Shown: one piece after another, positions 1 through 20,438 of the stretch | Position numbering within the stretch: the stretch's first letter is position 1 | Layout: every line of letters starts with the position of its first letter | Position numbers and translations under genes: made by a program | Assembly (NCBI GenBank): GCA_030648495.1 | Contig: JAUSHV010000004.1 | Coordinates: forward strand, 1 to 36,511 | Source: a bacterium | GTDB taxonomy: Bacteria; Patescibacteriota; Minisyncoccia; UBA11713; 2-01-FULL-45-33 | Direction of reading: 5' to 3' | DNA length: 36,511 nucleotides | The notes under the pieces: model-generated | What the model saw: only the letters and a program-made list of their open reading frames with translations | Told to the model about the DNA's origin: nothing | Database searches by the model: none

Positions 1-333
1 AAAAGCGTCTAAAAATATAAATACGTATCCGTACCTAAAACCGACACAGGTGGGTGAGTCGAGTAGACTCAGGTGAACGAGTGAGAGATCCTCAAGGAAC
101 TCGGCAAAAAAGCATTCGTAAGTTCGCAATATGAATTACCCCGATGACAATATAGCAATATATCGGACCTCGGGGTCGCAGCTAAAGTATGCTTGGCGAC
201 TGTTTATCAAAAACACAGCTCCCTGCAAACACGTAAGTGGAAGTATAGGGGGTGACTCCTGACCAATGCGAGAAGGTTAACGCTGGTGTTTCAATGTAGC
301 AATATGTTGGGGTGACCGGCCGAAGCCCTCGTC

Positions 334-1074
<741 letters not shown>

Positions 1075-1737
1075 GCGCAATTCCTTGTCAGGTGAGTTCT
1101 GACGCGCACGAAAGGAGCAACGACTGAGCAACTGTCTCGAGGATTCGCTCGGTGAAAATGCGATACCGGTGAAGATGCCGGTTAGGCACAGATAGACGAA
1201 AAGACCCCAGAAGCTTTACTGCAAGTTGTTATTGGCTTTACGTTTTTACTACGTAGCGTAGTGGTGAGGATTTGAAGTGTCGCTCTCGGGTGGCATGGAT
1301 CCGACGATGAAACAGCCATTTTTAAAGATGTAAAATCTAACCTGTTGAGATTAAACTCAATGGGGACAGTAGCTGCCGGGCAGTTTGTGTGGGGCGCAAT
1401 CCTCCTAAAAAGTAACGGAGGAGTTTATTAAGGTCAGCTAGGCGCGGATGGACATCGCGCTAGTCGTGTAATAGCAAAAGCTGGCTTAACTGCAAGACGG
1501 GCATGTCGCGCAGTTGCGAAAGCAGAATATAGTGAACCGACCGTAGGCACTCGATGCCGCGGAAGATTAACGGATAAAAGCTACTCTGGGGATAACAGGC
1601 TAGTTCCGTCCAAGAGTCCATATCGACGACGGAGTTCGGCACCTCGATGTCGGCTCAACTTATCCTGGGGGTGGAGAAGCTCCCAAGGGTTTGGCTGTTC
1701 GCCAATTAAAAAGTTACGTGAGCTGGGTTCAAACCGT

Positions 1738-2176
1738 TCAGAATCTAAAAAGATTTGGGTTTTGAACATGTTTGAATCCCGAGGTATAGAAAACGACATA
1801 TCACGGCGACCCTTATTAGTGATAATAAGGTGTATTAATCGACTTATATCGGTGAAGTCCATTTGTGGTAGACCAAGCCACATGTTAGGATAATACCGAG
1901 GGAAGTTTTAATTAATTTTTATGGAACAAGAAAAAATGCCTTTTTCAGAGGCAGATGAGATATTAAAAAGAGTTGAGCGAGAAACGCGATTAAAGTGGCT
2001 AGAATCGCAGGTATCATTATCTCCCGACGAACTCGAAGAATTTAATGATCTCAAAAAAGAATTAAGCGAGCCTGAAAATAAAGATTAATAACACCCGTAG
2101 AGACTGAACGTCGATACTCTCTAAATTTTAGAGAATAAGTTACAGTCCAATGCACGCAGTAATGCGTGGAAACATG
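1738..2176 (+). mobile_element. Group-I-like intron 2 in 23S rRNA (about E. coli position 2593, the I-CreI-type site), without an endonuclease gene
   Basis: The exon ends at gggttcaaaccgT (1737) and resumes at cgtgagacagg (2177). The 5' exon ends in U and the intron ends in G (2176). P7-like strings are agactga (2101-2107) and tacagtcc (2141-2148). Confidence 0.75.
1921..2088 (+). CDS. Small acidic 55-aa ORF inside intron 2 (MEQEKMPFSEADEILKRVERETRLKWLESQVSLSPDELEEFNDLKKELSEPENKD), hypothetical
   Basis: I translated this by hand; it falls below the ORF-track cutoff. It occupies the position where a homing endonuclease ORF would normally sit. There is only a weak purine-rich stretch upstream (gagggaag ~1897). 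The composition is helical and charged, with no recognisable family. Confidence 0.3.
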   Translation: MEQEKMPFSEADEILKRVERETRLKWLESQVSLSPDELEEFNDLKKELSEPENKD

Positions 2177-2239
2177 CGTGAGACAGGTTGGTCTCCTATC
2201 TACTGTGCCCGTTGATTTTTGAGGGGAGTTCTCCCTAGT

Positions 2240-3042
2240 AAATTTTGCTACTTCAGAGAGTAATCTCTGATGACAATTTGGCTAATAACGGTGGAACCTT
2301 CATAAATTTTCTGGTTGTATTTATCCACAGCCCATAGGTCCGGGGTGTGGTATCATGAAGTTACTTGAGGACCAGAAAATTTTTAAGGCAATACCGTGGG
2401 AAGTCGATCTAAAACTAAAAAGAACAAATTAAATTACGCTTACATTGCCGGATTTCTAGATGGCGATGGAAGTTTAATGCTGCAGATTAAAAAACGCAGC
2501 GATTCAAAAAAAGGTTGGCGATTTATGTCCACTATCTGTTTTTATCAGGATAGCAGGCACGATACGCCGCTTTCATGGATTCGTAAGCGTTTGGGAATTG
2601 GATATTTGTCCAGGCGAAACGATGGAATGACGGAATTGCGGATAAATGGTTATCAGCAAGTTCACGGAATTCTTAAAGTTTTGTTTCCATTTATTCAATT
2701 CAAGAAAAATCAGGCAGAAGCGCTTTTGAAAGCATCGGCTCTGCTTGCTAAAAAATCTTTAGTTGAGTTTTCGCTTGAAGAACGGCAGAAATTATTAGAT
2801 TGGATTTTAATTATTCAATCAAACAATTATGCCAGCCGGACGAAAACGACTAAAGAAACTTTGCAGAAAGTTTTAGATTTGACCCCGTAACGACTTGTGT
2901 CCCGCCATTTGGCGCGGACCGGACTCATATAAATTGGAAAGCCGTGCAATTTGCCGGCAGGTTTATATGGGTAATACGCCGACACCCGAAATATATCGGG
3001 TGAAGATATAGTCTGTGCTCCTAGAAATAGGGGGTATACATG
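2240..3042 (+). mobile_element. Group-I-like intron 3 in 23S rRNA, inserted within the sarcin-ricin loop sequence, carrying a homing endonuclease ORF
   Basis: The exon reads ...ctccctagT (2239) and resumes at acgagaggaccgg (3043). The 5' exon ends in U and the intron ends in G (3042). The P7/P3-like string gaagatatagtctg is at 3002-3015. Confidence 0.8.
2396..2890 (+). CDS. LAGLIDADG homing endonuclease (single-motif, ~164 aa), GTG start
   Basis: The ORF lies inside intron 3 and has the motif LNYAYIAGFLDGDGSLMLQI. Confidence 0.9.
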   Translation: MGSRSKTKKNKLNYAYIAGFLDGDGSLMLQIKKRSDSKKGWRFMSTICFYQDSRHDTPLSWIRKRLGIGYLSRRNDGMTELRINGYQQVHGILKVLFPFIQFKKNQAEALLKASALLAKKSLVEFSLEERQKLLDWILIIQSNNYASRTKTTKETLQKVLDLTP

Positions 3043-3122
3043 ACGAGAGGACCGGGAGGAGTTGACCTCTGGTCTACGAGCTCTGCCGCCAGGTGGATCG
3101 CTCGGTAGCTATGTCGATAAGT

Positions 3123-3153
<31 letters not shown>

Positions 3154-3324
3154 ACGCCCCAAGATTAGAAATCGTTATCAGACTCGTGGAAGATGACCAC
3201 GTTGATAGGCTCTAGGTGTAAGCATCGTAAGGTGTTCAGCCGAGGAGTACTAATGTTCGAATTGCTTTTTACGCGGCCGTTTTGTTAGAAAATGTGCTTA
3301 CGAATTAATATTTAAAAAGACGAA

Positions 3325-3353
3325 TTGACCTCTAATTAGAAAGGATGTAGTAT
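3325..3353 (+). promoter_or_regulatory. Sigma70-like promoter TTGACC-N17-TAGTAT, placed 6 nt upstream of the ATG at 3360 (leaderless geometry)
   Basis: ttgacc at 3325-3330, a 17-nt spacer, tagtat at 3348-3353, then ttattt and the ATG. Confidence 0.55.
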
Positions 3354-3359
3354 TTATTT

Positions 3360-3578
3360 ATGAGTGAACAAACACATACACCAGAATTTGATGAGGGAAC
3401 TGTCGAAATAATAAAAAACGCTATGGACGCTCTTAAAACCTTAGAGGCTGCTGCTGAAGCGGGAGATTTAGTAGAGGAACAAAGAAGTGCTATAAAAGAA
3501 TCTCTGAATGGTTTTTTTAAAGCTGTGCGCGAGTCAGGATTTTATATTGAGAGAATACATGGTTCAGAGAAAAAGTAA
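3360..3578 (+). CDS. Hypothetical 72-aa acidic helical protein encoded in the 23S-5S spacer
   Basis: A clean ORF with its own promoter-like element immediately upstream and no overlap with conserved rRNA sequence. No family is recognisable. Confidence 0.5.
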   Translation: MSEQTHTPEFDEGTVEIIKNAMDALKTLEAAAEAGDLVEEQRSAIKESLNGFFKAVRESGFYIERIHGSEKK

Positions 3579-3600
3579 AAAATAATTAAATTTTTTCATT

Positions 3601-3705
3601 CGGTGGTTTGAGGCGACGGCACTACCTCTTCCCATCCCGAACAGAGTCGTAAAACGTCGTACTACCGATGATACTCCGAAAGGGGGAAAGTAGGTAACCG
3701 CCGGT
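3601..3705 (+). rRNA. rrf: 5S rRNA
   Basis: The conserved core cccatcccgaacagagtcgtaaaacgtcgtactaccgatgatact...gtaggtaaccgcc is present. The 5' cggtggtt pairs with the 3' aaccgccg. Ends are accurate to about 5 nt. Confidence 0.85.
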
Positions 3706-3724
3706 TGAAAGGATTTAATTTAAT

Positions 3725-3760
3725 AAACAACCACCTTGTGGTGGTTGTTTGAGTTTTTTT
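3725..3760 (+). terminator. Rho-independent terminator of the rRNA operon
   Basis: A perfect hairpin aaacaaccacc-ttgt-ggtggttgttt is followed by gagttttttt. Confidence 0.85.
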
Positions 3761-3770
3761 GTGGCGCTTC

Positions 3771-3956
3771 TTAATGGAATATCACGCTTCTTTCATGTTT
3801 AGGAGAAAAAATCATTTGTAAGGCGAGTCCGGCGGCAATGGCATCCCATGCTTCATCAGGCGTCAATTTTGCGTTTAATTTGTACGATTCCCACAGTGTC
3901 ATAATCTCTTCGAGTGTGGGAGTAAAATCCTCGTGCGGATTAATTATTTTATCCAT
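3771..3956 (-). CDS. Hypothetical 61-aa protein (MDKIINPHEDFTPTLEEIMTLWESYKLNAKL...)
   Basis: This uses an internal ATG of the 118-aa track ORF, preceded on the minus strand by ataGGAGGactcttttt. The longer N-terminal extension runs into the GC-rich non-coding block. Confidence 0.5.
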   Translation of the reverse strand: MDKIINPHEDFTPTLEEIMTLWESYKLNAKLTPDEAWDAIAAGLALQMIFSPKHERSVIFH

Positions 3957-4016
3957 AAAAAGAGTCCTCCTATTTCCAATTATATCATATCTAAAATATT
4001 TTGCAGTGGGTGGTGG

Positions 4017-4045
4017 TTGAAAGAATTTAATTAGTATGCTAAGTT
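4017..4045 (+). promoter_or_regulatory. Candidate promoter TTGAAA-N17-TAAGTT (TGc-extended -10)
   Basis: ttgaaa at 4017-4022, a 17-nt spacer ending in tgc, and taagtt at 4040-4045. Confidence 0.4.
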
Positions 4046-4052
4046 TTATTTT

Positions 4053-4313
4053 GAGAGGGGGAGTAGTCGTTGCCCTAAGGGGCGGGGACAAAGACCGCAA
4101 GGATTCCAGCGGAACTCCTCTCACCAATTTGTTTTTTAAAAAGTCTTATGGGAGCGGTTTGCGTGGCTCATGGGCCGGTTGGGCTTTAAGCCCGTTTCTC
4201 CGCTTGTGGGAGAAAACCTCCTTCCCGGCTCGGCTACAGGCAGAGGAACTCTTTCCTCGCCGCTTCCGCCAATTTGATCCGCCAAACAAAAAAAGTTGGC
4301 GGGTTTTATTTTT
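4053..4313 (+). ncRNA. Candidate structured RNA(s) A. A 74-nt Y-shaped unit (4053-4126) is followed by a GC-rich structured segment ending at a terminator. Identity unknown.
   Basis: The 5' gagagg(g) pairs with (t)cctctc at 4116-4122, leaving a single-stranded acca. Internal hairpins are gccc-taag-gggc and ccgc...gcgg. gggagcgg (4151-) pairs with ccgcttcc (~4262-). The terminator is ccgccaaac-aaaaaaa-gttggcgg + gttttattttt (4278-4313). There is no credible ORF or RBS. Confidence 0.35.
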
Positions 4314-4324
4314 GTCAGATGGGC

Positions 4325-4352
4325 TTGACAAGCTCTGTGGGTTTGCTATAAT
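4325..4352 (+). promoter_or_regulatory. Consensus promoter TTGACA-N16-TATAAT with a TGc-extended -10 (copy 1 of a duplicated promoter module)
   Basis: ttgacaagctctgtgggtttgctataat differs at only one position from the copy at 4709-4736. Confidence 0.75.
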
Positions 4353-4358
4353 GCTCAA

Positions 4359-4700
4359 GACGGAGGTTGGCATTATCCGTTTGAATAACCAAGCTTGCCA
4401 ACCGGCTTGGGGTGATCGTAGAATGGCGGAACGAGCCAGCGCACCGCAACGTGCCGCGACAGACGAGGAATCCTCCTCAGATCGCAGGCGAGCCAACGTG
4501 CATAGCGGCCGCTAAGTTCTGCCGAAGGCGCCGGCGGAGGGGCTTTTAGGCCCGATCAGGGATGCGGATCATAAATCTGCATAAGCCCCTCCGCCAAAGT
4601 TTTAAAAACGCCTTTAGTCTTTGGGGTCTCAAAGACCGTAGAAGTAGACAAATGCCATTGTGCCAAGTCTACTCGCCGTGCACGACAGCACGGTTTTTTT
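4359..4700 (+). ncRNA. Candidate structured RNA 1 (~340 nt), identity unknown
   Basis: It starts about 7 nt after the consensus -10. It is GC-rich with many helices, for example the long-range pair ggcggaggggctt (4533-4545) / aagcccctccgcc (4583-4595), and the hairpins gtctttg..caaagac and gtagac..gtctac. It ends at the strong terminator at 4676-4700. ORFs are open in several frames on both strands, with no RBS. Confidence 0.55.
4676..4700 (+). terminator. Rho-independent terminator
   Basis: ccgtgc-acgaca-gcacgg followed by ttttttt. Confidence 0.8.
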
Positions 4701-4708
4701 GTTGCCTA

Positions 4709-4736
4709 TTGACAAGCTCTGTAGGTTTGCTATAAT
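4709..4736 (+). promoter_or_regulatory. Consensus promoter TTGACA-N16-TATAAT with a TGc-extended -10 (copy 2)
   Basis: ttgacaagctctgtaggtttgctataat. Confidence 0.75.
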
Positions 4737-4742
4737 GGCAAA

Positions 4743-5033
4743 GTCGGATACTCTCCCCAAGCGGGGTTCCACGGCTGCGAGCTACATGCTCGTCCATAAC
4801 GAAGCTTGGGATTTGAAAACCGCGGACTCGCCGGGCGCCGTCGAAGATACGCGCCGGGCCAGTCCTGACGCAATGGCGAAGGGGGCGCAAATTCAAAAGG
4901 TTTCCTGGGGCCTTTGATTTTTCTGGGGACCTGCACCCCCTTCGCCCAAGTTTTTTTTAAAGCCCTTAAATGGGAAGTCCTTTGAACCATAGAGTTCAAC
5001 AGGGCGGACTCGACTTCGGTCGGGTTTTTTTTT
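4743..5033 (+). ncRNA. Candidate structured RNA 2 (~290 nt), identity unknown; possibly related to RNA 1
   Basis: It has the same promoter module as RNA 1. An analogous long-range helix pairs ggcgaagggggcgca (4875-4889) with tgcacccccttcgcc (4932-4946) and is followed by T8. A second hairpin actcgac-ttcg-gtcgggt with T9 lies at 5008-5033. A further hairpin is gccgggcgc...gcgccgggc. No RBS or plausible ORF is present. Confidence 0.55.
5008..5033 (+). terminator. Rho-independent terminator (UUCG-tetraloop hairpin plus T9)
   Basis: actcgac ttcg gtcgggt followed by ttttttttt. Confidence 0.8.
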
Positions 5034-5038
5034 ATACT
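5010..5038 (+). promoter_or_regulatory. Candidate promoter TCGACT-N17-TATACT, 6 nt upstream of the ATG at 5045 (leaderless geometry), overlapping the preceding terminator
   Basis: tcgact at 5010-5015, tatact at 5033-5038, then aaacac and the ATG. No SD sequence is present. Confidence 0.4.
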
Positions 5039-5044
5039 AAACAC

Positions 5045-5803
5045 ATGCAATTATCTTGGGGAGCCAAAAAACAAATAAAGTTTTTTACCATATTTGCGTT
5101 AGCTATCTTGGCGATAGTCGCAGGAATAATTTATTTTGTCCGTCCGGAGCAGACCTGTTTTGATAAACACCAGAACCAAGATGAAGAAGGAGTCGATTGC
5201 GGAGGGGCGACTTGTATTCCGTGCTCGAACCAGATCCGTGACATTAATATTTTATGGACGCGCCCTTTCAAGATTACGGACGGCGCCTATGACTTTGCGG
5301 CCTTGGTGGAAAACACGAATTCATTTTTAAAAGCCGCCAAACTGGATTATTTCGTAAAATTTTATGACTCGGAAAATATTTTAATAGCCATCAAAGAAAA
5401 TTCAACCTTTGCCGGCGCAGGCGAAAAATTTGTTATCTTTGAACCCTCCATCATTACCCAGCACCGCATTCCTGTGCGCGCAATTCTTGAGATTGCGAAA
5501 GTTGCCTGGGATAAAGGCGGCAAAATTCCCTTGAAGCTCGATGTGCTTTCCACTAATAAATTCCTAAGCGCTTCTTCTACGCCGTCGAGAGTAGAAGCGG
5601 TTATCAAAAATCAACTGAACGCGGAATACAGCAATATAGAAGCAACTGCAATTTTGTGGGATGCAGGAGACACTGCTCTTGGGGTCTCGCGTACGTTTGT
5701 TGACCGCTTTGATATTGATGAAATCAAAACCCTGACGTTTACTTGGCCGGCGGGAATAAACGGCGTCTCGCGAGTTGAGGTCTTTTTCCGCCAGATGCCA
5801 TGA
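5045..5803 (+). CDS. Membrane-anchored hypothetical protein with the Cys motif CFDKHQNQDEEGVDCGGATCIPC
   Basis: This uses an internal ATG of the track ORF, because the upstream part overlaps the terminator. There is an N-terminal TM helix FFTIFALAILAIVAGIIYFV. The stop overlaps the rodA start (ATGA). Confidence 0.7.
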   Translation: MQLSWGAKKQIKFFTIFALAILAIVAGIIYFVRPEQTCFDKHQNQDEEGVDCGGATCIPCSNQIRDINILWTRPFKITDGAYDFAALVENTNSFLKAAKLDYFVKFYDSENILIAIKENSTFAGAGEKFVIFEPSIITQHRIPVRAILEIAKVAWDKGGKIPLKLDVLSTNKFLSASSTPSRVEAVIKNQLNAEYSNIEATAILWDAGDTALGVSRTFVDRFDIDEIKTLTFTWPAGINGVSRVEVFFRQMP

Positions 5804-6951
5804 GGTTTTTTCGAGGAGTTGATTGGGTGCTGGCCTTATCTGCCGTGGTTTTGTCGCTTTTAGGGCTCGCGGCTATGAAATCTTTTGTTATCGGAAACGG
5901 TTCGACTATTCTCACCGCAAGCGACTATTATTTCAACCGCCAGATTTTATGGCTTATTTTAAGCATTTTGGTTTTTATTACCGCTCTGCTTATTGACTGG
6001 GAATTTTTGAAAACGAACAGTATTATTCTACTTTTTTTCTATTTGGTCGCGCTTGTATTTTTAGCCGTACTTCTCTTGGGAGGAGGCAGTATTGTTAAAG
6101 GAGCGGAGAGTTGGTATAAGGTTTATTCCATAGCTTTACAGCCGGTCGAGCTTATGAAAATTATTCTGGTCCTAGTTTTGGCAAAATATTTTTCTAGGAG
6201 GCACGTTGAGATAGCAAGGTTTTTCCATATTTTTGCTTCCGGTATTTATGCGGCTGTCCCGGTTATTTTAGTTATACTTCAGCCTGATTTCGGTTCGGCT
6301 TTCATAATATCCGCTTTGTGGCTCGGCATGGCATTGATCGGAGGCATTAAAGTGCGCCATATACTTTTATTATTTGGGACGGCAGTAATTGCCGGAGTCC
6401 TTGTTTGGAATTTTGTTTTTCTTCCGTATCAGAAATCCAGGATATTGACATTTCTTGAGCCGGCCAGCGACATTCGCGGAGCAGGGTATCATGCCTTGCA
6501 ATCAACCATCGCAGTAGGGTCCGGAGAAATTTTGGGAAAGGGGATCGGCTTCGGCACGCAGTCGAGGCTTTCATTTTTGCCAGAAAAAGAATCAGATTTT
6601 ATTTTCGCCGCTTTCGCGGAAGAGTGGGGGCTCATCGGAGTGCTCATTATATTTTTATTTTTTGGAATTATGATCTGGCGTATCTTGCGGGCGGGGATTT
6701 ACGGTGAATCTAATTTTGAAAAATTATACGCCGCAGGGCTCGCCATTTTATTTGTCTCGCAAGCTTCTATCCATGTAGGCATGAACATGGGGCTTCTGCC
6801 CATAACCGGCCTTGGTATGCCTTTTATGTCTTATGGTGGCTCAAGTCTCGTCTCATCATTTCTCGCAATCGGCATCTTGGAAAGCTTCTCTATCCGCAAA
6901 AAAGGCATATTCATCGGCATGGAGGAACGATTTAAGGAGGGGGTGTTTTGA
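5800..6951 (+). CDS. rodA: SEDS-family peptidoglycan glycosyltransferase (RodA/FtsW family, RodA-like)
   Basis: A polytopic membrane protein with the motifs QPDFGSA and GYHALQSTIAVGSGEILGKGIGFGTQSRLSFLPEKESDFIFAAFAEEWGLIG. Confidence 0.9.
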   Translation: MRFFRGVDWVLALSAVVLSLLGLAAMKSFVIGNGSTILTASDYYFNRQILWLILSILVFITALLIDWEFLKTNSIILLFFYLVALVFLAVLLLGGGSIVKGAESWYKVYSIALQPVELMKIILVLVLAKYFSRRHVEIARFFHIFASGIYAAVPVILVILQPDFGSAFIISALWLGMALIGGIKVRHILLLFGTAVIAGVLVWNFVFLPYQKSRILTFLEPASDIRGAGYHALQSTIAVGSGEILGKGIGFGTQSRLSFLPEKESDFIFAAFAEEWGLIGVLIIFLFFGIMIWRILRAGIYGESNFEKLYAAGLAILFVSQASIHVGMNMGLLPITGLGMPFMSYGGSSLVSSFLAIGILESFSIRKKGIFIGMEERFKEGVF

Positions 6952-6961
6952 GATTGATTTT

Positions 6962-6991
6962 TAGACAAATTACAATCAAATATGCTATCGT
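6962..6991 (+). promoter_or_regulatory. Candidate promoter TAGACA-N18-TATCGT (TGc-extended), 6 nt upstream of the ATG at 6998
   Basis: tagaca at 6962-6967, tgc then tatcgt at 6986-6991, then ttaaat and the ATG. Confidence 0.4.
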
Positions 6992-6997
6992 TTAAAT

Positions 6998-7153
6998 ATG
7001 GAAGAGATTAAGATAGATAAAATCACAACTGATTCAAAAAATAATATGAAGGAAGAAATAGCAAAACTAATAAAACTTGTGAGATGGATTCTTATCGGGA
7101 TAATTATCATAGGATTCATTTGGCTGCTTGTCTCACCGAATTCGCCTTATTAG
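6998..7153 (+). CDS. Hypothetical 51-aa tail-anchored membrane peptide (MEEIKIDKITTDSKNNMKEEIAKLIKLVRWILIGIIIIGFIWLLVSPNSPY)
   Basis: Translated by hand; below the ORF-track cutoff. It has a C-terminal TM helix and a promoter-like element directly upstream. Confidence 0.4.
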   Translation: MEEIKIDKITTDSKNNMKEEIAKLIKLVRWILIGIIIIGFIWLLVSPNSPY

Positions 7154-7204
7154 ATTTATACACACCGATACAATAACACATCAGTTATTAAAATTTAAGA
7201 AATA

Positions 7205-7399
7205 ATGAAAAATATTATGGTTAATATGACAGCCGAATATATATGTAAAAACTACCATCGCACAAGTTATCCTTACTTGGATATTGAAGCGCAAGAAAAC
7301 AATCAGACAAAACAGACGGAAGCGCATTTGTTGTGTAAAACGTGCGGAGCAGATTTAGAGTTCGATAGAGCAAACGCCTCTCTTAAAACAAAGAAATAA
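7205..7399 (+). CDS. Hypothetical 64-aa protein with sparse Cys/His (C14, H18, C44-x2-C47)
   Basis: ORF only. No clear RBS and no recognisable family. Confidence 0.4.
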   Translation: MKNIMVNMTAEYICKNYHRTSYPYLDIEAQENNQTKQTEAHLLCKTCGADLEFDRANASLKTKK

Positions 7400-7437
7400 T
7401 CATATATTCAAAGGATCGTTTTTAAATCCATGGCGGG

Positions 7438-7466
7438 TTGCAAATTGACTCCCAATATGCTAATAT
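7438..7466 (+). promoter_or_regulatory. Promoter TTGCAA-N17-TAATAT (TGc-extended), 7 nt upstream of the ATG at 7474 (leaderless geometry)
   Basis: ttgcaa at 7438-7443, taatat at 7461-7466, then cttaaat and the ATG. Confidence 0.5.
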
Positions 7467-7473
7467 CTTAAAT

Positions 7474-7722
7474 ATGACAAGTAGCTATCTTCAAAAACAA
7501 CTCGATTATTTTAAATCCAATCAAGACGAGTTCGTAAAGAAATATAAGGGTAAATTTCTTGTAATCAAGGATCAAAAGATACAGGGTATTTATAATACGG
7601 AAATAGAAGCGTATACAGATGCTAAAAAGAAATTTGAGCTCGGTATTTTTTTAATTCAACAATGTTCCCCAGGTCAAGAAAGCTATACACAAACCTTTCA
7701 CTCTCGAGTAGCATTTTTTTGA
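7474..7722 (+). CDS. Small 82-aa protein that partners the downstream aspartic protease (pattern ...KYKGKFLVIKDQKIQGIY..., resembling the small DUF5678-like proteins that accompany such proteases)
   Basis: The internal ATG was chosen because the promoter overlaps the longer ORF start. It lies 4 nt upstream of the protease gene. The family assignment is from memory of the sequence pattern only. Confidence 0.5.
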   Translation: MTSSYLQKQLDYFKSNQDEFVKKYKGKFLVIKDQKIQGIYNTEIEAYTDAKKKFELGIFLIQQCSPGQESYTQTFHSRVAFF

Positions 7723-7726
7723 TTCC

Positions 7727-8287
7727 ATGCAACACCTTGCATTCACTATCCGATATAACGGACGAGCCCGCGTATTATTCAGCAAGGTCAATGTGTGTTT
7801 ACCAATTGCTCTAGAGGAAGCACAAACACAAAAAGTTGAATTTAAAGAATACATTGCGATTTGGGATACGGGCGCTACGCATTCTGCTATAACAAAAAAA
7901 GTTGTAGATGACTTAAAATTGCAACCCACCGGAGTACGAGAGACAAGGCATGCTGGTGGGAAATCCTCAAATAATACATATCTAGTTAATATCGCATTAC
8001 CAAATAAGGTAATGGTTCCTCATGTCCGTGTGACAGAGGTACAACTTATTCCTGACGACAACACTTCAGATGACAAGCAACCCCAACTTTTAATAGGGAT
8101 GGATATAATTGGTCTTGGTGACTTTGCAGTTACTAATGCCAACAATAAAACTACTTTTTCGTTCAGAATTCCGTCTGTTGAGGAAATAGATTTTATACCG
8201 GATACTCAAGAAAATAATGTGATGGAGAATAGCAATAGAAAGGAGCGGCGTGCTTTTGAAGCGAAGAAAAGAAGGGGACTGGTTTAA
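7727..8287 (+). CDS. Retropepsin-like (clan AA) aspartic protease
   Basis: The catalytic motif IAIWDTGATHSAI and the downstream LLIGMDIIG flap/dimerisation-type motif are present. Confidence 0.75.
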   Translation: MQHLAFTIRYNGRARVLFSKVNVCLPIALEEAQTQKVEFKEYIAIWDTGATHSAITKKVVDDLKLQPTGVRETRHAGGKSSNNTYLVNIALPNKVMVPHVRVTEVQLIPDDNTSDDKQPQLLIGMDIIGLGDFAVTNANNKTTFSFRIPSVEEIDFIPDTQENNVMENSNRKERRAFEAKKRRGLV

Positions 8288-8316
8288 GGCGATAGAATTG
8301 TCAGGCAAAAAATTTC

Positions 8317-8430
8317 AGCTCCGGTCTTGTCTCATCTTTTTTAGCAATCGGCATCTTGGAAAGCTTCTCTATCCGCAAAAAAGGCATATTCATCGGCATG
8401 GAAGAGAGGTTCAAGGAAGGCGTGTTTTAA
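8317..8430 (+). pseudogene. Displaced copy of the last 37 codons plus stop of rodA (copy 2)
   Basis: It translates as SSGLVSSFLAIGILESFSIRKKGIFIGMEERFKEGVF*, against GSSLVSSFLAIGILESFSIRKKGIFIGMEERFKEGVF* for the real end at 6838-6951. The central 58 nt (8345-8402) are identical to 6866-6923. The flanks differ almost only at synonymous positions. Confidence 0.85.
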
Positions 8431-8432
8431 CT

Positions 8433-8461
8433 TTGCCGGGCGGCCCGTGAATTGATATCAT
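8433..8461 (+). promoter_or_regulatory. Candidate promoter TTGCCG-N17-TATCAT, 6 nt upstream of the ATG at 8468 (leaderless geometry)
   Basis: ttgccg at 8433-8438, tatcat at 8456-8461, then agactc and the ATG. Confidence 0.45.
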
Positions 8462-8467
8462 AGACTC

Positions 8468-10204
8468 ATGACGACTGAAGAACAGCCCCAATTTATAAAA
8501 GAATTCTCTAGATCAGAATCGCGCGAAGAAAGAGACAGCCTGGCTCAAGAAATTCGTGAAGAACGACGAAAAGCTTTTTCTGCGGAAAATAAAAATTCCG
8601 AAAATAAAAAAGTAGATTCAATAATAAATGCCACTGAAAATTTGAGAGATAATGTTGAAATAAGTAACAATGACAAGGCGTTTCAGGGAAATATTAATAG
8701 CTTGTTGGAGATTAATAGTTTAAAAAGTCAATTTGATGAAAAATCAGGAACAAATGTGACTTTTGAAGAACGCCTCAAAACTCCCATAGGCGGCCGTCAG
8801 GGGTTAGAGGACACAAGGAAAAAGCTATCTGATTTTTATGACAAGGAAAGACAAAAATGGGCGGAAAATCCGTATACCCAAGCGGATATACAAAAATATT
8901 TTAATGAAGAAAACTTAAAATCTCTGTCAGTTGATGATTACGTGCTTTTTTTGAAGCGTTTTCCCGGTAATATGATCACTCATGTTACCAGGCAAGGAAT
9001 TAGGGATCATTACAGTATTGACAATCACATTGCGGGATTAGGAGAATTTCAAAATAATTTTAAGGATATTCTTGAAAAAAAACAGCTAAATTCCGCCATC
9101 GGTATAGAATTACAGGAATCCTCAAAAGAAAAACTAGTTTCTGATTATTTGGACCAGTTCGTGAAAGATATGCAGGAGGCCGGGTATGAACCGGACCGGG
9201 AAAGCGCTATGAGCAGATTGGAATCGAAGCTTGGATACGGCGCAATTAAAGGAAGTGTTTATAATTTTGCGGACCGATCAGCCATACATGTTGCAACAGA
9301 ACAGGTAGCAGATGCCATATATGGGGGCGAAAAAGGGAATGAAATATTTTTTGTTTTTCCGTCCGCCTACGCGGCGTCTCAAATGGAATTCGGCGGCCAA
9401 CTTAAAGATAATGTAGGCGGATCGCATAACGATCAAAGGATTTGGGCGGACCTAAAAAAAGGAATGAGTTTAGACGCAGGTATAGTTTTTATACCTGAAG
9501 AAACCGAAGTAGATGCAAAGACAGGGTCAAAATACGAGTTAGATGAAAATAACAATCCGATCATCATTGAAGAGAATTTAGCGGAGATCAGGAAGCTAAC
9601 TGATTCGGCTGATTTTCAGGAATTTGCCGGTCAATCTATAAAAATTCTTGGAAAAAGTGAAGCAAATCAAAACCTGGAGGAATTAGATGGGCTTCGTAAA
9701 ACTCTAGCAGAAAAATTTGGCATAAAAAATCAATCTATACGGGATTCTGTTTTAAATTATAGATTTTTGCATGAGGTTAAATATGCAGCCGAAGAAAAAG
9801 AGGATTATCGTAAAATAAAGACAGATAAAGAAATTAGCCAAGTTTTAATGGATAAAGAAAATTTATACTTAAAGGCAAAAGACACCGTAAAATCAAAAGA
9901 ATACTGGGAAAATTATTTTGCACAAAATCCGGAAAAGCGACCATCAAAAAGCGTCTATTATAAAGGTAGCGATCCAACAACAGCGCTAAATGAATGGAGA
10001 GAACGAAATGGAATCTCAAAAAGAGCAGAGGATGCGGATTTTGATTTTGAAGAAAATAAAAAAACTGACAAGGAGATAAATGAAAGCCCAGAACAAAGCC
10101 AGTTCATGGCAATTGCAAAAAAAATAATAGATGAGCGATTTCCCGTAAAAATTAAAGAAAAACGATCTACTTCCGATAAAGACGAGCCACCACCGCTTGA
10201 TTAG
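8468..10204 (+). CDS. Hypothetical 578-aa acidic, Lys/Glu-rich soluble protein
   Basis: A long clean ORF with no TM segment or signal peptide and no motif I can assign. Confidence 0.7.
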   Translation: MTTEEQPQFIKEFSRSESREERDSLAQEIREERRKAFSAENKNSENKKVDSIINATENLRDNVEISNNDKAFQGNINSLLEINSLKSQFDEKSGTNVTFEERLKTPIGGRQGLEDTRKKLSDFYDKERQKWAENPYTQADIQKYFNEENLKSLSVDDYVLFLKRFPGNMITHVTRQGIRDHYSIDNHIAGLGEFQNNFKDILEKKQLNSAIGIELQESSKEKLVSDYLDQFVKDMQEAGYEPDRESAMSRLESKLGYGAIKGSVYNFADRSAIHVATEQVADAIYGGEKGNEIFFVFPSAYAASQMEFGGQLKDNVGGSHNDQRIWADLKKGMSLDAGIVFIPEETEVDAKTGSKYELDENNNPIIIEENLAEIRKLTDSADFQEFAGQSIKILGKSEANQNLEELDGLRKTLAEKFGIKNQSIRDSVLNYRFLHEVKYAAEEKEDYRKIKTDKEISQVLMDKENLYLKAKDTVKSKEYWENYFAQNPEKRPSKSVYYKGSDPTTALNEWRERNGISKRAEDADFDFEENKKTDKEINESPEQSQFMAIAKKIIDERFPVKIKEKRSTSDKDEPPPLD

Positions 10205-10231
10205 CACAATCTCTTACTTGTCTGCGATAAT

Positions 10232-10278
10232 GCCTTTTCATCGGCATGGAAGAGAGGTTCAAGGAAGGCGTGTTTTGA
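10232..10278 (+). pseudogene. Displaced copy of the last ~13 codons plus stop of rodA (copy 3)
   Basis: ttcatcggcatggaagagaggttcaaggaaggcgtgttttga encodes FIGMEERFKEGVF*. It has the same synonymous variant pattern as copy 2 and is 40/40 identical to 8388-8427 up to the stop codon. Confidence 0.8.
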
Positions 10279-10280
10279 GG

Positions 10281-10308
10281 TTGACATGAATTTCAAATCC
10301 GCTATCTT
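10281..10308 (+). promoter_or_regulatory. Candidate promoter TTGACA-N16-TATCTT
   Basis: ttgaca at 10281-10286 and tatctt at 10303-10308, about 23 nt before the ATG at 10332. Confidence 0.45.
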
Positions 10309-10331
10309 GTCGTAAGAGGCAAAAAAAGAAA

Positions 10332-10661
10332 ATGCTGAAAAAGAACAAATCTCCAGAAAAAATAATAGAAGAATGGTATAAAGAAAACGAAAACGGAGAG
10401 GGCTTGAAAGAGAAAAATCAACATTTATCTTACGAAAATTTTTTAACAATCGGTTTAGATTTTTTAGAGTGCAAGGCCATGATAGAAACGGCGTTCCCTG
10501 GGGTTAGGGGCTTTATGTTTTCAAAGAAGCAACTGCGTTTTATTGTTGATGCTTCTGTAGATGAAGGTCAGAAGAAGGCTATTCGCGAGACCTGCATCGG
10601 GTTTGTTACGTTAAACAAAATTCTAAAATCTATAAATAAAACTGCTGAGGCAAAACGCTAA
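10332..10661 (+). CDS. Hypothetical 109-aa protein
   Basis: An ORF downstream of a promoter-like element. No family is recognised. Confidence 0.5.
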   Translation: MLKKNKSPEKIIEEWYKENENGEGLKEKNQHLSYENFLTIGLDFLECKAMIETAFPGVRGFMFSKKQLRFIVDASVDEGQKKAIRETCIGFVTLNKILKSINKTAEAKR

Positions 10662-10758
10662 AGCGGTTTTTTATTACAAATTTGGCATGAATTTGACACG
10701 AAATCATTGGGGCTTGACAGGTTTTTGGCGTCTGCTAGGGTAGTGGATAAGACAGGAT

Positions 10759-10787
10759 TTGACACTTTTTTATAAGTTTGCTAATAT
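10759..10787 (+). promoter_or_regulatory. Promoter TTGACA-N17-TAATAT (TGc-extended). A second TTGACA-N16-TAGGGT lies at ~10716-10743.
   Basis: ttgaca at 10759-10764 and taatat at 10782-10787. There are three TTGACA boxes within 90 nt. Confidence 0.55.
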
Positions 10788-10817
10788 AGTCATAATAATA
10801 TGAAAGGAGAATTACCC

Positions 10818-20360: not shown

Positions 20361-20438
20361 CCGCCTTTTTTATTTTATTCCTCTGATATTGACAAAATTG
20401 CTAGATGCTATAAAATGCAATAAGAAAGAAGGTGTTTT

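Follow-up and report, generated by a model that had tools for sequence, protein, structure and literature searches.

A GC-rich block of candidate structured RNA genes beside the rRNA operon of a Candidatus Giovannonibacteria genome

Here, we describe a GC-rich block that lies between the ribosomal RNA (rRNA) operon and an apparently leaderless membrane-protein/rodA operon of Candidatus Giovannonibacteria, a lineage of the Candidate Phyla Radiation (CPR). The block resides in a window of 36.5 kb, the whole stretch of DNA that was analyzed (contig JAUSHV010000004.1, positions 1 to 36,511). Our best explanation, to which we assign a probability of roughly 0.55, is that the block (4017-5036) is noncoding and houses four structured RNA genes, here called E1, E2, A, and B, that are arranged in three transcription units and belong to three lineage-specific, uncatalogued families. 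RNAs A and B are paralogs of a modular RNA, the U family, that consists of a conserved core and interchangeable inserts, with optional 3′ extensions in some relatives. Coordinates refer to the window and to its plus strand unless given otherwise; L-numbers denote related loci with which the window was compared.

Architecture of the RNA block

A first-pass annotation of this DNA, made from the sequence alone, had proposed that a GC-rich stretch of about 1 kb beside the rRNA operon specifies two paralogous structured RNAs driven by a duplicated consensus promoter. The observations behind that proposal hold. GC content is 52 to 56% over 4051-4950 versus 31 to 47% in the flanks. Rfam identifies the 5S rRNA gene, with which the rRNA operon ends, and places part of the 23S rRNA gene, its 3′ half, upstream of 5S. 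Open reading frames (ORFs) run through the block on both strands and, as the annotation argued, look noncoding: they lack Shine–Dalgarno (SD) sequences, and resemblance to relatives extends over several frames and both strands. Both promoters score 12 of 12 and carry a TG-extended −10 box, and a repeat finder shows them to be 88% identical across a 40-nt duplication. Strong intrinsic terminators, each a hairpin followed by a T-run, close both transcripts of about 300 nt. Analogous long-range helices are present in the two RNAs (13 bp, perfect, in A and 15 bp, with one mismatch, in B), each followed by (C)AAGUUUU. Along with this closing helix and its AAGUUUU tail, A and B have in common their promoter, a 5′ start of AAG-N-CGGA, and a CCAAGC/GCUUGG helix, which supports the claim that they are paralogous. 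The part of the proposal that does not stand is the total of two, as E1 and E2, located within 4017-4313, bring the number of RNAs to four.

RNA A begins with AAG, a helix ACGGA/UCCGU (4360-4364/4376-4380), UUGAAUAA, and the helix CCAAGC/GCUUGG (4389-4394/4405-4410). Following these elements are a GGCGGAAC/GUUCUGCC domain, the closing "E" helix (4533-4545/4583-4595; 100% complementary) with a 37-nt insert, AAAGUUUU, two hairpins, and the terminator. In RNA B, the 5′ portion contains the helix CCCAAGC/GCUUGGG (4754-4760/4803-4809), AUUUGAAAACC (4810-4820), and a GGACU...AGUCC hairpin domain, and the 3′ portion contains the E helix (4875-4889/4932-4946; 93% complementary) with a 42-nt insert, CAAGUUUUUUUU, two hairpins, and the terminator. 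Against dinucleotide shuffles, the fold z-scores are −5.06 for RNA A and −3.08 for RNA B.

E1 and E2 precede A and B. In E1, a closing helix (GAGAGGG/UCCUCUC) surrounds two hairpins and CGGAAC; the 3′ strand of the helix is followed by ACCA. E2 consists of helix P1 (GGGAGCGG/CCGCUUCC), helices P2 and P3, two variable hairpins, a single-stranded ACCUCCUUCC, a 3′ hairpin, and GCCA. The segment 4000-4324, which contains both RNAs, has a fold z-score of −2.86 on the same type of shuffle.

The promoters of A and B are of a type that is otherwise rare in the window: the pattern TTGAC-N17-19-TAWAAT has only one further match in the 36.5 kb, at 20389. A loose promoter scan yields 7 sites where 2.2 are expected by shuffling. 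The A/B type, which combines TGn with an unusual spacer of 16 nt, is kept in L001, L002, L158, L161, L162, and L177. Promoter quality suggests that A and B could be abundant RNAs. The element ahead of E1 lies below the promoter-scan score and is a putative promoter. Its −35 part duplicates GGTTGAAAGGATTTAAT, which abuts the 3′ end of 5S (repeat finder), and the element also occurs ahead of E2, or ahead of the X1 RNA described below, in L002, L003, L046, L158, and L162, with −10 boxes that range from TATAAT (L158) to TAGTCT. The terminator scan allows loops of 3 to 8 nt only, and the E1/E2 terminator, with its 10-nt loop, is thus outside its range. Hairpin and T-run terminators are also present 3′ of E2 in L001, L002, L003, and L046.

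Conservation of structure among relatives

To anchor the comparison, we used the 252-amino acid protein encoded downstream of the block, which was searched in GTDB genomes (best match 85% identical); this search assigns the window to Candidatus Giovannonibacteria. Further contigs came from protein searches, contig look-ups, and one metagenome pattern scan. Within the Giovannonibacteria clade, a mosaic of RNA genes separates 5S from the anchor gene. In Vogelbacteria and other distant relatives (L007-L010), 5S is joined to the gene with almost nothing between. MAFFT and RNAalifold aligned E2 and the U RNAs poorly, so we aligned both by hand, with N as a placeholder.

Compensatory maintenance of helices, the generic mark of a structured noncoding RNA, is found in these hand-made alignments for both E2 and the U core. 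The first-pass annotation had suggested a covariation test on homologous regions from related CPR genomes, and these compensatory changes favor its RNA interpretation. For the U family, the pair count covers the first helix and the closing helix in 12 copies, two of them from the window and two from L002: 99.5% of cells are paired, and 17 of the 22 pairs show compensatory change. For E2, the count covers four helices in seven variants from which the variable hairpins were removed: 98.9% of cells are paired, and both sides have changed in 15 of the 27 pairs. None of 500 shuffles does as well in either case. Sliding the structure lowers pairing to 38 to 51% for the U core and, with a slide of 1 to 3 columns, to 41 to 54% for E2. 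Single-sequence thermodynamic folds recover the E2 helices in six of the seven variants.

U-family copies are present in the window (two) and in L001, L002, L157, L158, L159, L160, L161, and L162/L164, with a minimal form in L176. The core comprises a 5′ AAGUNGGA; a helix and then AUUUGAAAA, i.e., A(A/U)UUGAAAA; a hairpin domain; and the closing helix GCGAAGGGG/CCCCUUCGC followed by NAAGUUU. Around this core, the parts vary. The insert in the closing helix is short in A and B, and that of B is 80.6% identical to its counterpart in L176. In L001, L002, L157, L160, L161, and L162, the insert is long (about 150 to 190 nt), with nested helices and a conserved GUGGAGGA...UGUUGAAG; the window copies do not contain this module of about 150 nt. 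L158 and L161 carry an additional 3′ module of 200 to 280 nt, module V. At L177 (1-300), the U promoter is fused straight to module V, apparently by deletion between two GCCnAAGUU repeats, and at L174 (480-910), a different RNA of about 400 nt with a related promoter occupies the same position. The 3′ part of RNA B is 87.6% identical to L157, and RNA A has no close ortholog in the other loci. By sequence, RNA B is the copy at the ancestral position. RNA A looks like a lineage-specific duplicate whose promoter is nearly unchanged. Finally, among relatives, the first U hairpin carries a CU-rich loop (UUCCUC) in four of four copies that have the long insert with GGAGGA and in zero of three that lack this insert. 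Pseudoknots, involving the short E insert or AUUUGAAAA with the AAGUUUU tail, were checked by eye and are not conserved.

E2 exists in the window and in L001, L002, L003, L046, L158, and L161, and it ranges from 107 to 145 nt. One to three lineage-specific hairpins lie between P3 and its return strand, the apical hairpins differ in count and sequence, and the loop of the 3′ hairpin is variable. A covariance model of E2 finds one match per locus and, over 203 kb of related loci, nothing beyond these. A DNA-pattern scan of metagenomes for E2 was too loose: it returned at least 120 mostly random matches, with at least 5 true loci, from 3 lineages, among the matches listed. Amid this variability, the motif CCUCC(U/C)U(U/C)CC is invariant. 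Its CCUCCUU is predicted to be unpaired, mostly with probabilities of 0.7 to 1.0, in six of seven variants, with a minimum of 0.54 in L158; the value for L001 is about 0.43. The motif resembles the usual 3′ tail of 16S rRNA, the anti-SD sequence; the window itself holds no 16S gene.

The ends of E1 and E2 are tRNA-like. Specifically, (A/G)CCA follows the terminal helix in six of seven E2 variants and in all three E1/X2 RNAs, and a terminal helix followed by single-stranded RCCA is the arrangement of tRNA-like substrates of RNase P. Cleavage itself is a prediction. The generalization that all closing helices in the block end in NCCA, as tRNAs do, was tried and rejected: it is true for E1 and E2 only, because the CC of A and B is within the helix (GGCG.../...CGCC), and the U-family relatives have CGCU-GAAG or similar at the end of the closing helix. 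In the L003/L046 lineage, the E2 hairpin GGGGTTCAAATCCCC is a perfect T-arm look-alike. ARAGORN calls a 92-nt "tRNA-His" at L003 2409-2500 (also in L046, L051, L091, and L098) that overlaps E2; the call is spurious and arises because the inserted hairpin mimics a T arm. Public annotations of L003-type genomes may hold a false tRNA.

Right after 5S, L158 and L162/L164 carry two additional small RNAs that are likewise unclassified, X1 and X2. When E1 is aligned with X2 of L158 and L162, the closing helix is seen to be conserved and includes one compensatory pair. E1 appears to be a reduced form of X2, a homology that is weak and that comes from three sequences. Both X2 copies share an identical stretch containing the palindrome GCUCGAGC, a possible dimerization site.

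Table 1. Features of the RNA block, the adjoining rRNA operon, and the X RNAs of relatives
Feature	Position	Strand	Description and basis
5S rRNA	3599..3706	+	Rfam RF00001, 62 bits; end of rRNA operon
rRNA-operon terminator	3724-3760	+	Hairpin and T-run; terminator scan
Promoter-like element of E1/E2	4017..4045	+	TTGAAA (4017-4022), 17-nt spacer, TGc-TAAGTT (4037-4045); by eye
E1 RNA, 74 nt	4053..4126	+	Fold; three-sequence alignment
E2 RNA, 122 nt	4150..4271	+	Seven-variant alignment, folds, covariance model
E2 motif CCUCC(U/C)U(U/C)CC	4216..4225	+	Invariant in 7/7 variants
E1/E2 terminator	4279..4313	+	CCGCCAA, 10-nt loop, UUGGCGG, then GUUUUAUUUUU; by eye
Promoter of RNA A	4325..4352	+	TTGACA-N16-TGcTATAAT; 12/12 score with TG
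RNA A, ~345 nt	~4358..4700	+	Fold, inverted repeat, family pair count; 5′ end placed from the −10 box
Terminator of RNA A	4675-4700	+	Hairpin 4675-4694, then T-run
Promoter of RNA B	4709..4736	+	TTGACA-N16-TGcTATAAT; 12/12 score with TG
RNA B, ~295 nt	~4742..5036	+	Fold, similarity to relatives, family pair count, terminator
Terminator of RNA B	5006-5036	+	Hairpin 5006-5027, then T-run
X1, X2 in L158	310-445, 523-605		
X1, X2 in L162	62-190, 222-315		

Searches for known RNA families

We searched Rfam 15 (4227 models) with gathering thresholds and with E ≤ 10 on window 3700-5300 and L158 1-1400, and with E ≤ 1 on L157, L160, L161, L162, L174, L176, and L177. Over the window and the related loci, the only matches are to rRNA, group I introns, and tRNA (L007), and none lies in the block. 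The earlier description of the RNAs as unknown is borne out, as the scan of 3700-5300 is empty even at E ≤ 10. No covariance model of OLE, GOLLD, ROOL, raiA, HEARO, or another large noncoding RNA catalogued in Rfam 15 matches. ARAGORN, run for tRNA, tmRNA (transfer-messenger RNA), and permuted tmRNA, reports nothing in the window or in the U-bearing loci and no tmRNA in L001-L015; its calls in L003, L007, and L010 are all outside the U RNAs. A literature search on noncoding RNAs, tmRNA, and RNase P in the CPR revealed no description of these families. The three families are new, absent from Rfam 15, and so far confined to one genus-level clade of the CPR.

Universal RNAs were considered individually and rejected. 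RNase P RNA gives no match at E ≤ 10 (window, L158) or at E ≤ 1 (the seven other loci). Near-matches to its P4 motifs, CR-I (GAGGAAAGUCC) and CR-V (ACAGAAnnnGGCUUA), are scattered over single loci on either strand, and none is shared; the look-alikes GGAGGAAAGACC (L160) and CAGAAUUUCGGCUAC (L002, L162) pair locally and are likewise unshared, and P4 cannot form in most homologs. Regarding tmRNA, neither ARAGORN nor Rfam detects a T-loop domain (GGUUCRAnUCC), the sole T-loop being the optional E2 hairpin of L003/L046. A possible tag frame at the conserved GAAGCGGUA ranges from 5 to more than 60 codons and varies in sequence among L001, L002, L157, L160, L161, and L162, and A and B do not have the GAAGCGGUA module. 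The signal recognition particle (SRP, 4.5S) RNA has no Rfam match, and a helix 8 motif, which would have a GNRA tetraloop and symmetric and asymmetric loops of the GGAAGCAGCC type, is absent, within 2 to 3 mismatches, at any consistent position. 6S RNA gives no match at E ≤ 10, and the folds are multibranched or multi-hairpin, unlike the 6S rod of about 180 nt with its large central bubble; this rejection is weaker, since 6S models are insensitive. Finally, with respect to tRNA, ARAGORN is empty in the window, and the internal hairpins of E1 are unlike D, anticodon, and T arms. The first-pass annotation had reported that the hallmark strings of such RNAs are missing, and our mismatch-tolerant search (RNase P CR-I, CR-IV, and CR-V, T-loop, SRP helix 8) agrees, as nothing is shared across homologs. 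That annotation had left two possibilities, a very divergent universal RNA or a new family. The new family is favored, and the divergent universal RNA is disfavored by patchy presence, variable copy number, and module turnover.

Possible functions and likeness to known RNAs

We envisage all four RNAs as stable and trans-acting, rather than as leaders of the neighboring gene. With its CCUCCUU in an open multibranch loop, E2 would copy the anti-SD tail of 16S rRNA and would most likely pair with GGAGG-type sequences. Candidate partners are the few SD-bearing mRNAs, for example that of the small ORF beside E2, whose SD is UAGGAGGA, or the GGAGGA module of the U RNAs in relatives. Alternatively, E2 could titrate a factor that recognizes the 16S tail. 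Given their terminal helix and RCCA, E1 and E2 are probably both cut from a precursor by tRNA-processing enzymes, i.e., RNase P at the 5′ end and 3′ trimming, and such processing would part E1 from E2 in a common transcript. The U RNAs are most likely scaffolds that bind protein or RNA, with the sequence-invariant closing helix and the A/U-rich linkers as recognition sites. That relatives with the GGAGGA insert have a CU-rich loop in the first U hairpin, and those without the insert do not, hints at a possible tertiary loop contact. Pfam searches of the neighboring genes reveal no partner RNA-binding protein beside the block.

We speculate that these parts could be joined. In this scenario, E2 would be a free copy of the anti-SD, made alongside rRNA and matured like a tRNA, that balances SD-dependent against leaderless mRNAs, and the U RNAs would be modular ribonucleoprotein scaffolds retargeted by their inserts. 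If so, U paralogs with different inserts would provide different specificities. We hold this combined picture at low odds.

Each of the RNAs resembles known systems in some respects. Ornate noncoding RNAs (OLE, GOLLD, ROOL, raiA motif; 200 to 800 nt) are, like A and B, GC-rich and structured, with their own promoters and terminators and a core plus variable periphery, and they were found by the same logic of seeking GC-rich intergenic regions in AT-rich genomes. GOLLD and ROOL often adjoin tRNA genes. Unlike the ornate RNAs, A and B match nothing in Rfam, are smaller (295 to 345 nt), are limited to one CPR clade, occur as tandem paralogs, and have no evident associated protein gene. Bacillus 6S-1 and 6S-2, like A and B, are two paralogous, strongly promoted RNAs, and the stability of A and B is presumed; however, A and B have multi-hairpin folds rather than a rod with a central bubble and are 1.5 to 2.5 times larger. 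E2, with its conserved single-stranded CCUCCUU in a tight fold, recalls C/U-rich small RNAs (sRNAs) that pair with SD sequences, such as the RsaE/RoxS type, and spacer-derived sponges such as 3′ETS-leuZ, and several relatives encode E2 within a housekeeping RNA operon, in its trailer. E2 differs from these sRNAs in that it has no sequence relation to them, is larger, possesses a terminal helix and RCCA, and exists in an SD-poor host; the analogy is functional only. Finally, the terminal helix of 7 to 8 bp, the adjacent stacked hairpin, and the (A/G)CCA of E1 and E2 are reminiscent of the tRNA-like domain of tmRNA, the 4.5S precursor, and YrlA/Y-RNA-like molecules, and one lineage's E2 has a perfect T-arm-like hairpin, GGGGUUCAAAUCCCC. 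E1 and E2 differ from these RNAs in that they have no conserved T- or D-loop, no cloverleaf, no tag frame, and no Rfam match to tmRNA or Y RNA.

Alternative explanations

One alternative is that the RNAs act in cis, with A and B as a riboswitch or attenuator leader of the membrane-protein/rodA operon and E1 and E2 as processing or termination structures of the rRNA-operon trailer. Arrangement lends this notion some appeal: at every readable locus, the membrane-protein gene is immediately preceded, in the same orientation, by a U RNA, a U fragment (L176, L177), or a different RNA (L174), and E2 immediately follows 5S in L002, L003, and L046. The details point the other way. A canonical terminator closes each RNA, with no obvious antiterminator alternative, and no riboswitch is matched by Rfam in the window, L158, or the seven further loci. 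The downstream gene, which starts at 5045, has its own TATACT box exactly 6 nt ahead of the ATG and no SD; a TAnnnT box 6 nt before the ATG of the membrane-protein gene, also with no SD, recurs in L001, L002, L005, L158, L161, L162, L174, and L176, which suggests that the mRNA is leaderless. Two tandem units, each with its own promoter, make no sense as a leader, and because of this combination of −10 box, terminators, and tandem units, a cis-regulatory leader is quite unlikely. In addition, a terminator and an opposite-strand ORF part E1 and E2 of the window from the rRNA operon, and the distant relatives L007 and L008 have almost nothing between 5S and the gene. A different proposal makes A, B, or E2 extremely divergent universal RNAs (RNase P RNA, tmRNA, SRP/4.5S, 6S) that covariance models miss. 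Their sizes would suit, as would strong promoters in the neighborhood of the rRNA operon; E2 has the paired ends and RCCA of tmRNA and other tRNA-like RNase P substrates, and lone near-matches to RNase P motifs appear in single homologs (e.g., GAGGAAAGACC in L160). Against this idea, nine loci give no Rfam match to such RNAs, ARAGORN finds no tmRNA, no hallmark is shared, and tag frames are not conserved. Moreover, presence, copy number, and modules vary between genomes whose flanking proteins are 50 to 85% identical: L003/L046 have E2 alone, L162 and L176 have no E2, and L176 and L177 have only U fragments. Given such gain, loss, duplication, and truncation between close relatives, universal essential RNAs (rnpB, ssrA, ffs) are disfavored, and we judge this explanation highly unlikely.

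The same turnover could be taken to mean that the block is a recombination hot spot of decaying or selfish DNA whose hairpins have no RNA-level function. The mosaic of duplicated promoter pieces, partial 5S copies, inserted small ORFs, and the L177 deletion between short repeats fits this view, as does the difference in locus content between genomes whose flanking protein is 76 to 85% identical. Debris, however, would not be expected to keep perfect promoters and terminators in six to eight lineages and helices by compensatory change. Over roughly 217 kb of related sequence, the closing-helix motif is confined to the RNA block locus and is not a dispersed repeat, and a scan of viral contigs with one 18-nt closing-helix motif gave chance matches only. 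We regard decay as very improbable. Least credence goes to the possibility that the block encodes small proteins, either from overlapping ORFs or, in relatives, from mini-ORFs behind GGAGGA. ORFs of 85 to 159 amino acids are indeed open on both strands, and in relatives GGAGGA is followed by short frames within the long insert. The long ORFs, however, have no Pfam match, and those of the window have no SD and begin within promoters or terminators. tblastn similarity to relatives falls in two to three frames and on both strands over the same segments, and, as similarity is not frame-specific, coding is unlikely. Stem substitutions are compensatory, and the mini-ORFs vary in frame, length, and stop position among relatives.

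The interpretation as four structured RNA genes has weaknesses of its own. Pair counting used manual alignments that were guided by the helices, which favors pairing, although folds and slid controls agree with them. The sequences number 7 for E2 and 12 for the U family, come from one genus-level clade, and include several that are closely related. We infer RNA ends, abundance, and processing. The E1/E2 promoter of the window is weak, with a −10 box of TAAGTT. L162/L164 and L176 have no E2 at the locus, and the E2 of L158 lacks CCA, so neither E2 nor CCA is obligatory. The anti-SD idea concerns a motif of 7 to 10 nt and what would be candidate targets only. An SD is present in about 5 of 25 genes of the window, which would leave a general SD sponge with few clients; in several of the other genes, a −10-like box seems to lie immediately before the start codon.

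Genomic neighborhood

A small ORF with a strong SD adjoins the RNA block on the opposite strand (3771-3956, minus; 61 amino acids from an internal ATG at 3956). It recurs, with 64 to 71 amino acids, in relatives (L161 2643-2855 and 2893-3087, minus; L162 362-577, minus), and a Pfam search with this ORF yields no match. The promoter of this ORF in L162 is of the consensus type and diverges from the U-RNA promoter, the two lying back-to-back.

The interval downstream of 5S looks like a hot spot of recombination and insertion. The element GGTTGAAAGGATTTAATT, which abuts the 3′ end of 5S (3703-3720), is duplicated ahead of E1 (4015-4032), and relatives contain partial second copies of the 3′ half of 5S, each ending in the GGTTGAAAGGATTTAATT element (L001 1500-1600 and 1865-1935; L002 480-600; L161 2440-2595). 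Upstream, the 23S gene (window 1-3600) is broken by several group I introns. Intron_gpI has sub-threshold matches at 815-1034, 1933-2169, and 2783-3034, and ORFs for LAGLIDADG endonucleases occupy 453-941 and 2396-2890. By cmscan, the 3′ end of 23S is at 1912; the GC-rich region at about 2850-3300, before 5S, may be the true last exon.

Beyond rodA, the window has an extra segment of about 3.8 kb (6950-10800) ahead of a Sigma70_r4/HARE-HTH gene. The segment holds a retropepsin-like aspartyl protease (7727-8287) and a 578-amino acid ORF (8468-10204) that has no Pfam match. In L157, L158, L161, and L174, the Sigma70_r4/HARE-HTH gene is close behind rodA, with zero or one to two small ORFs between.

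Significance

Within one kilobase, and with consensus promoters, the block holds three or more families of structured RNA that Rfam 15 does not contain. Such packing implies heavy investment for a genome of less than 1 Mb. The families are new and may have a new kind of function. If they prove to be ordinary lineage-specific sRNAs, their value will lie mainly in new Rfam families and in annotation, such as the explanation of the spurious tRNA-His. Beyond that, two candidates for new RNA classes stand out: E2, with its apparent mimic of the 16S tail in an SD-poor organism, and the U family, with its cassette-like architecture. Across relatives, the locus allows the birth, duplication, and remodeling of RNA genes to be traced.

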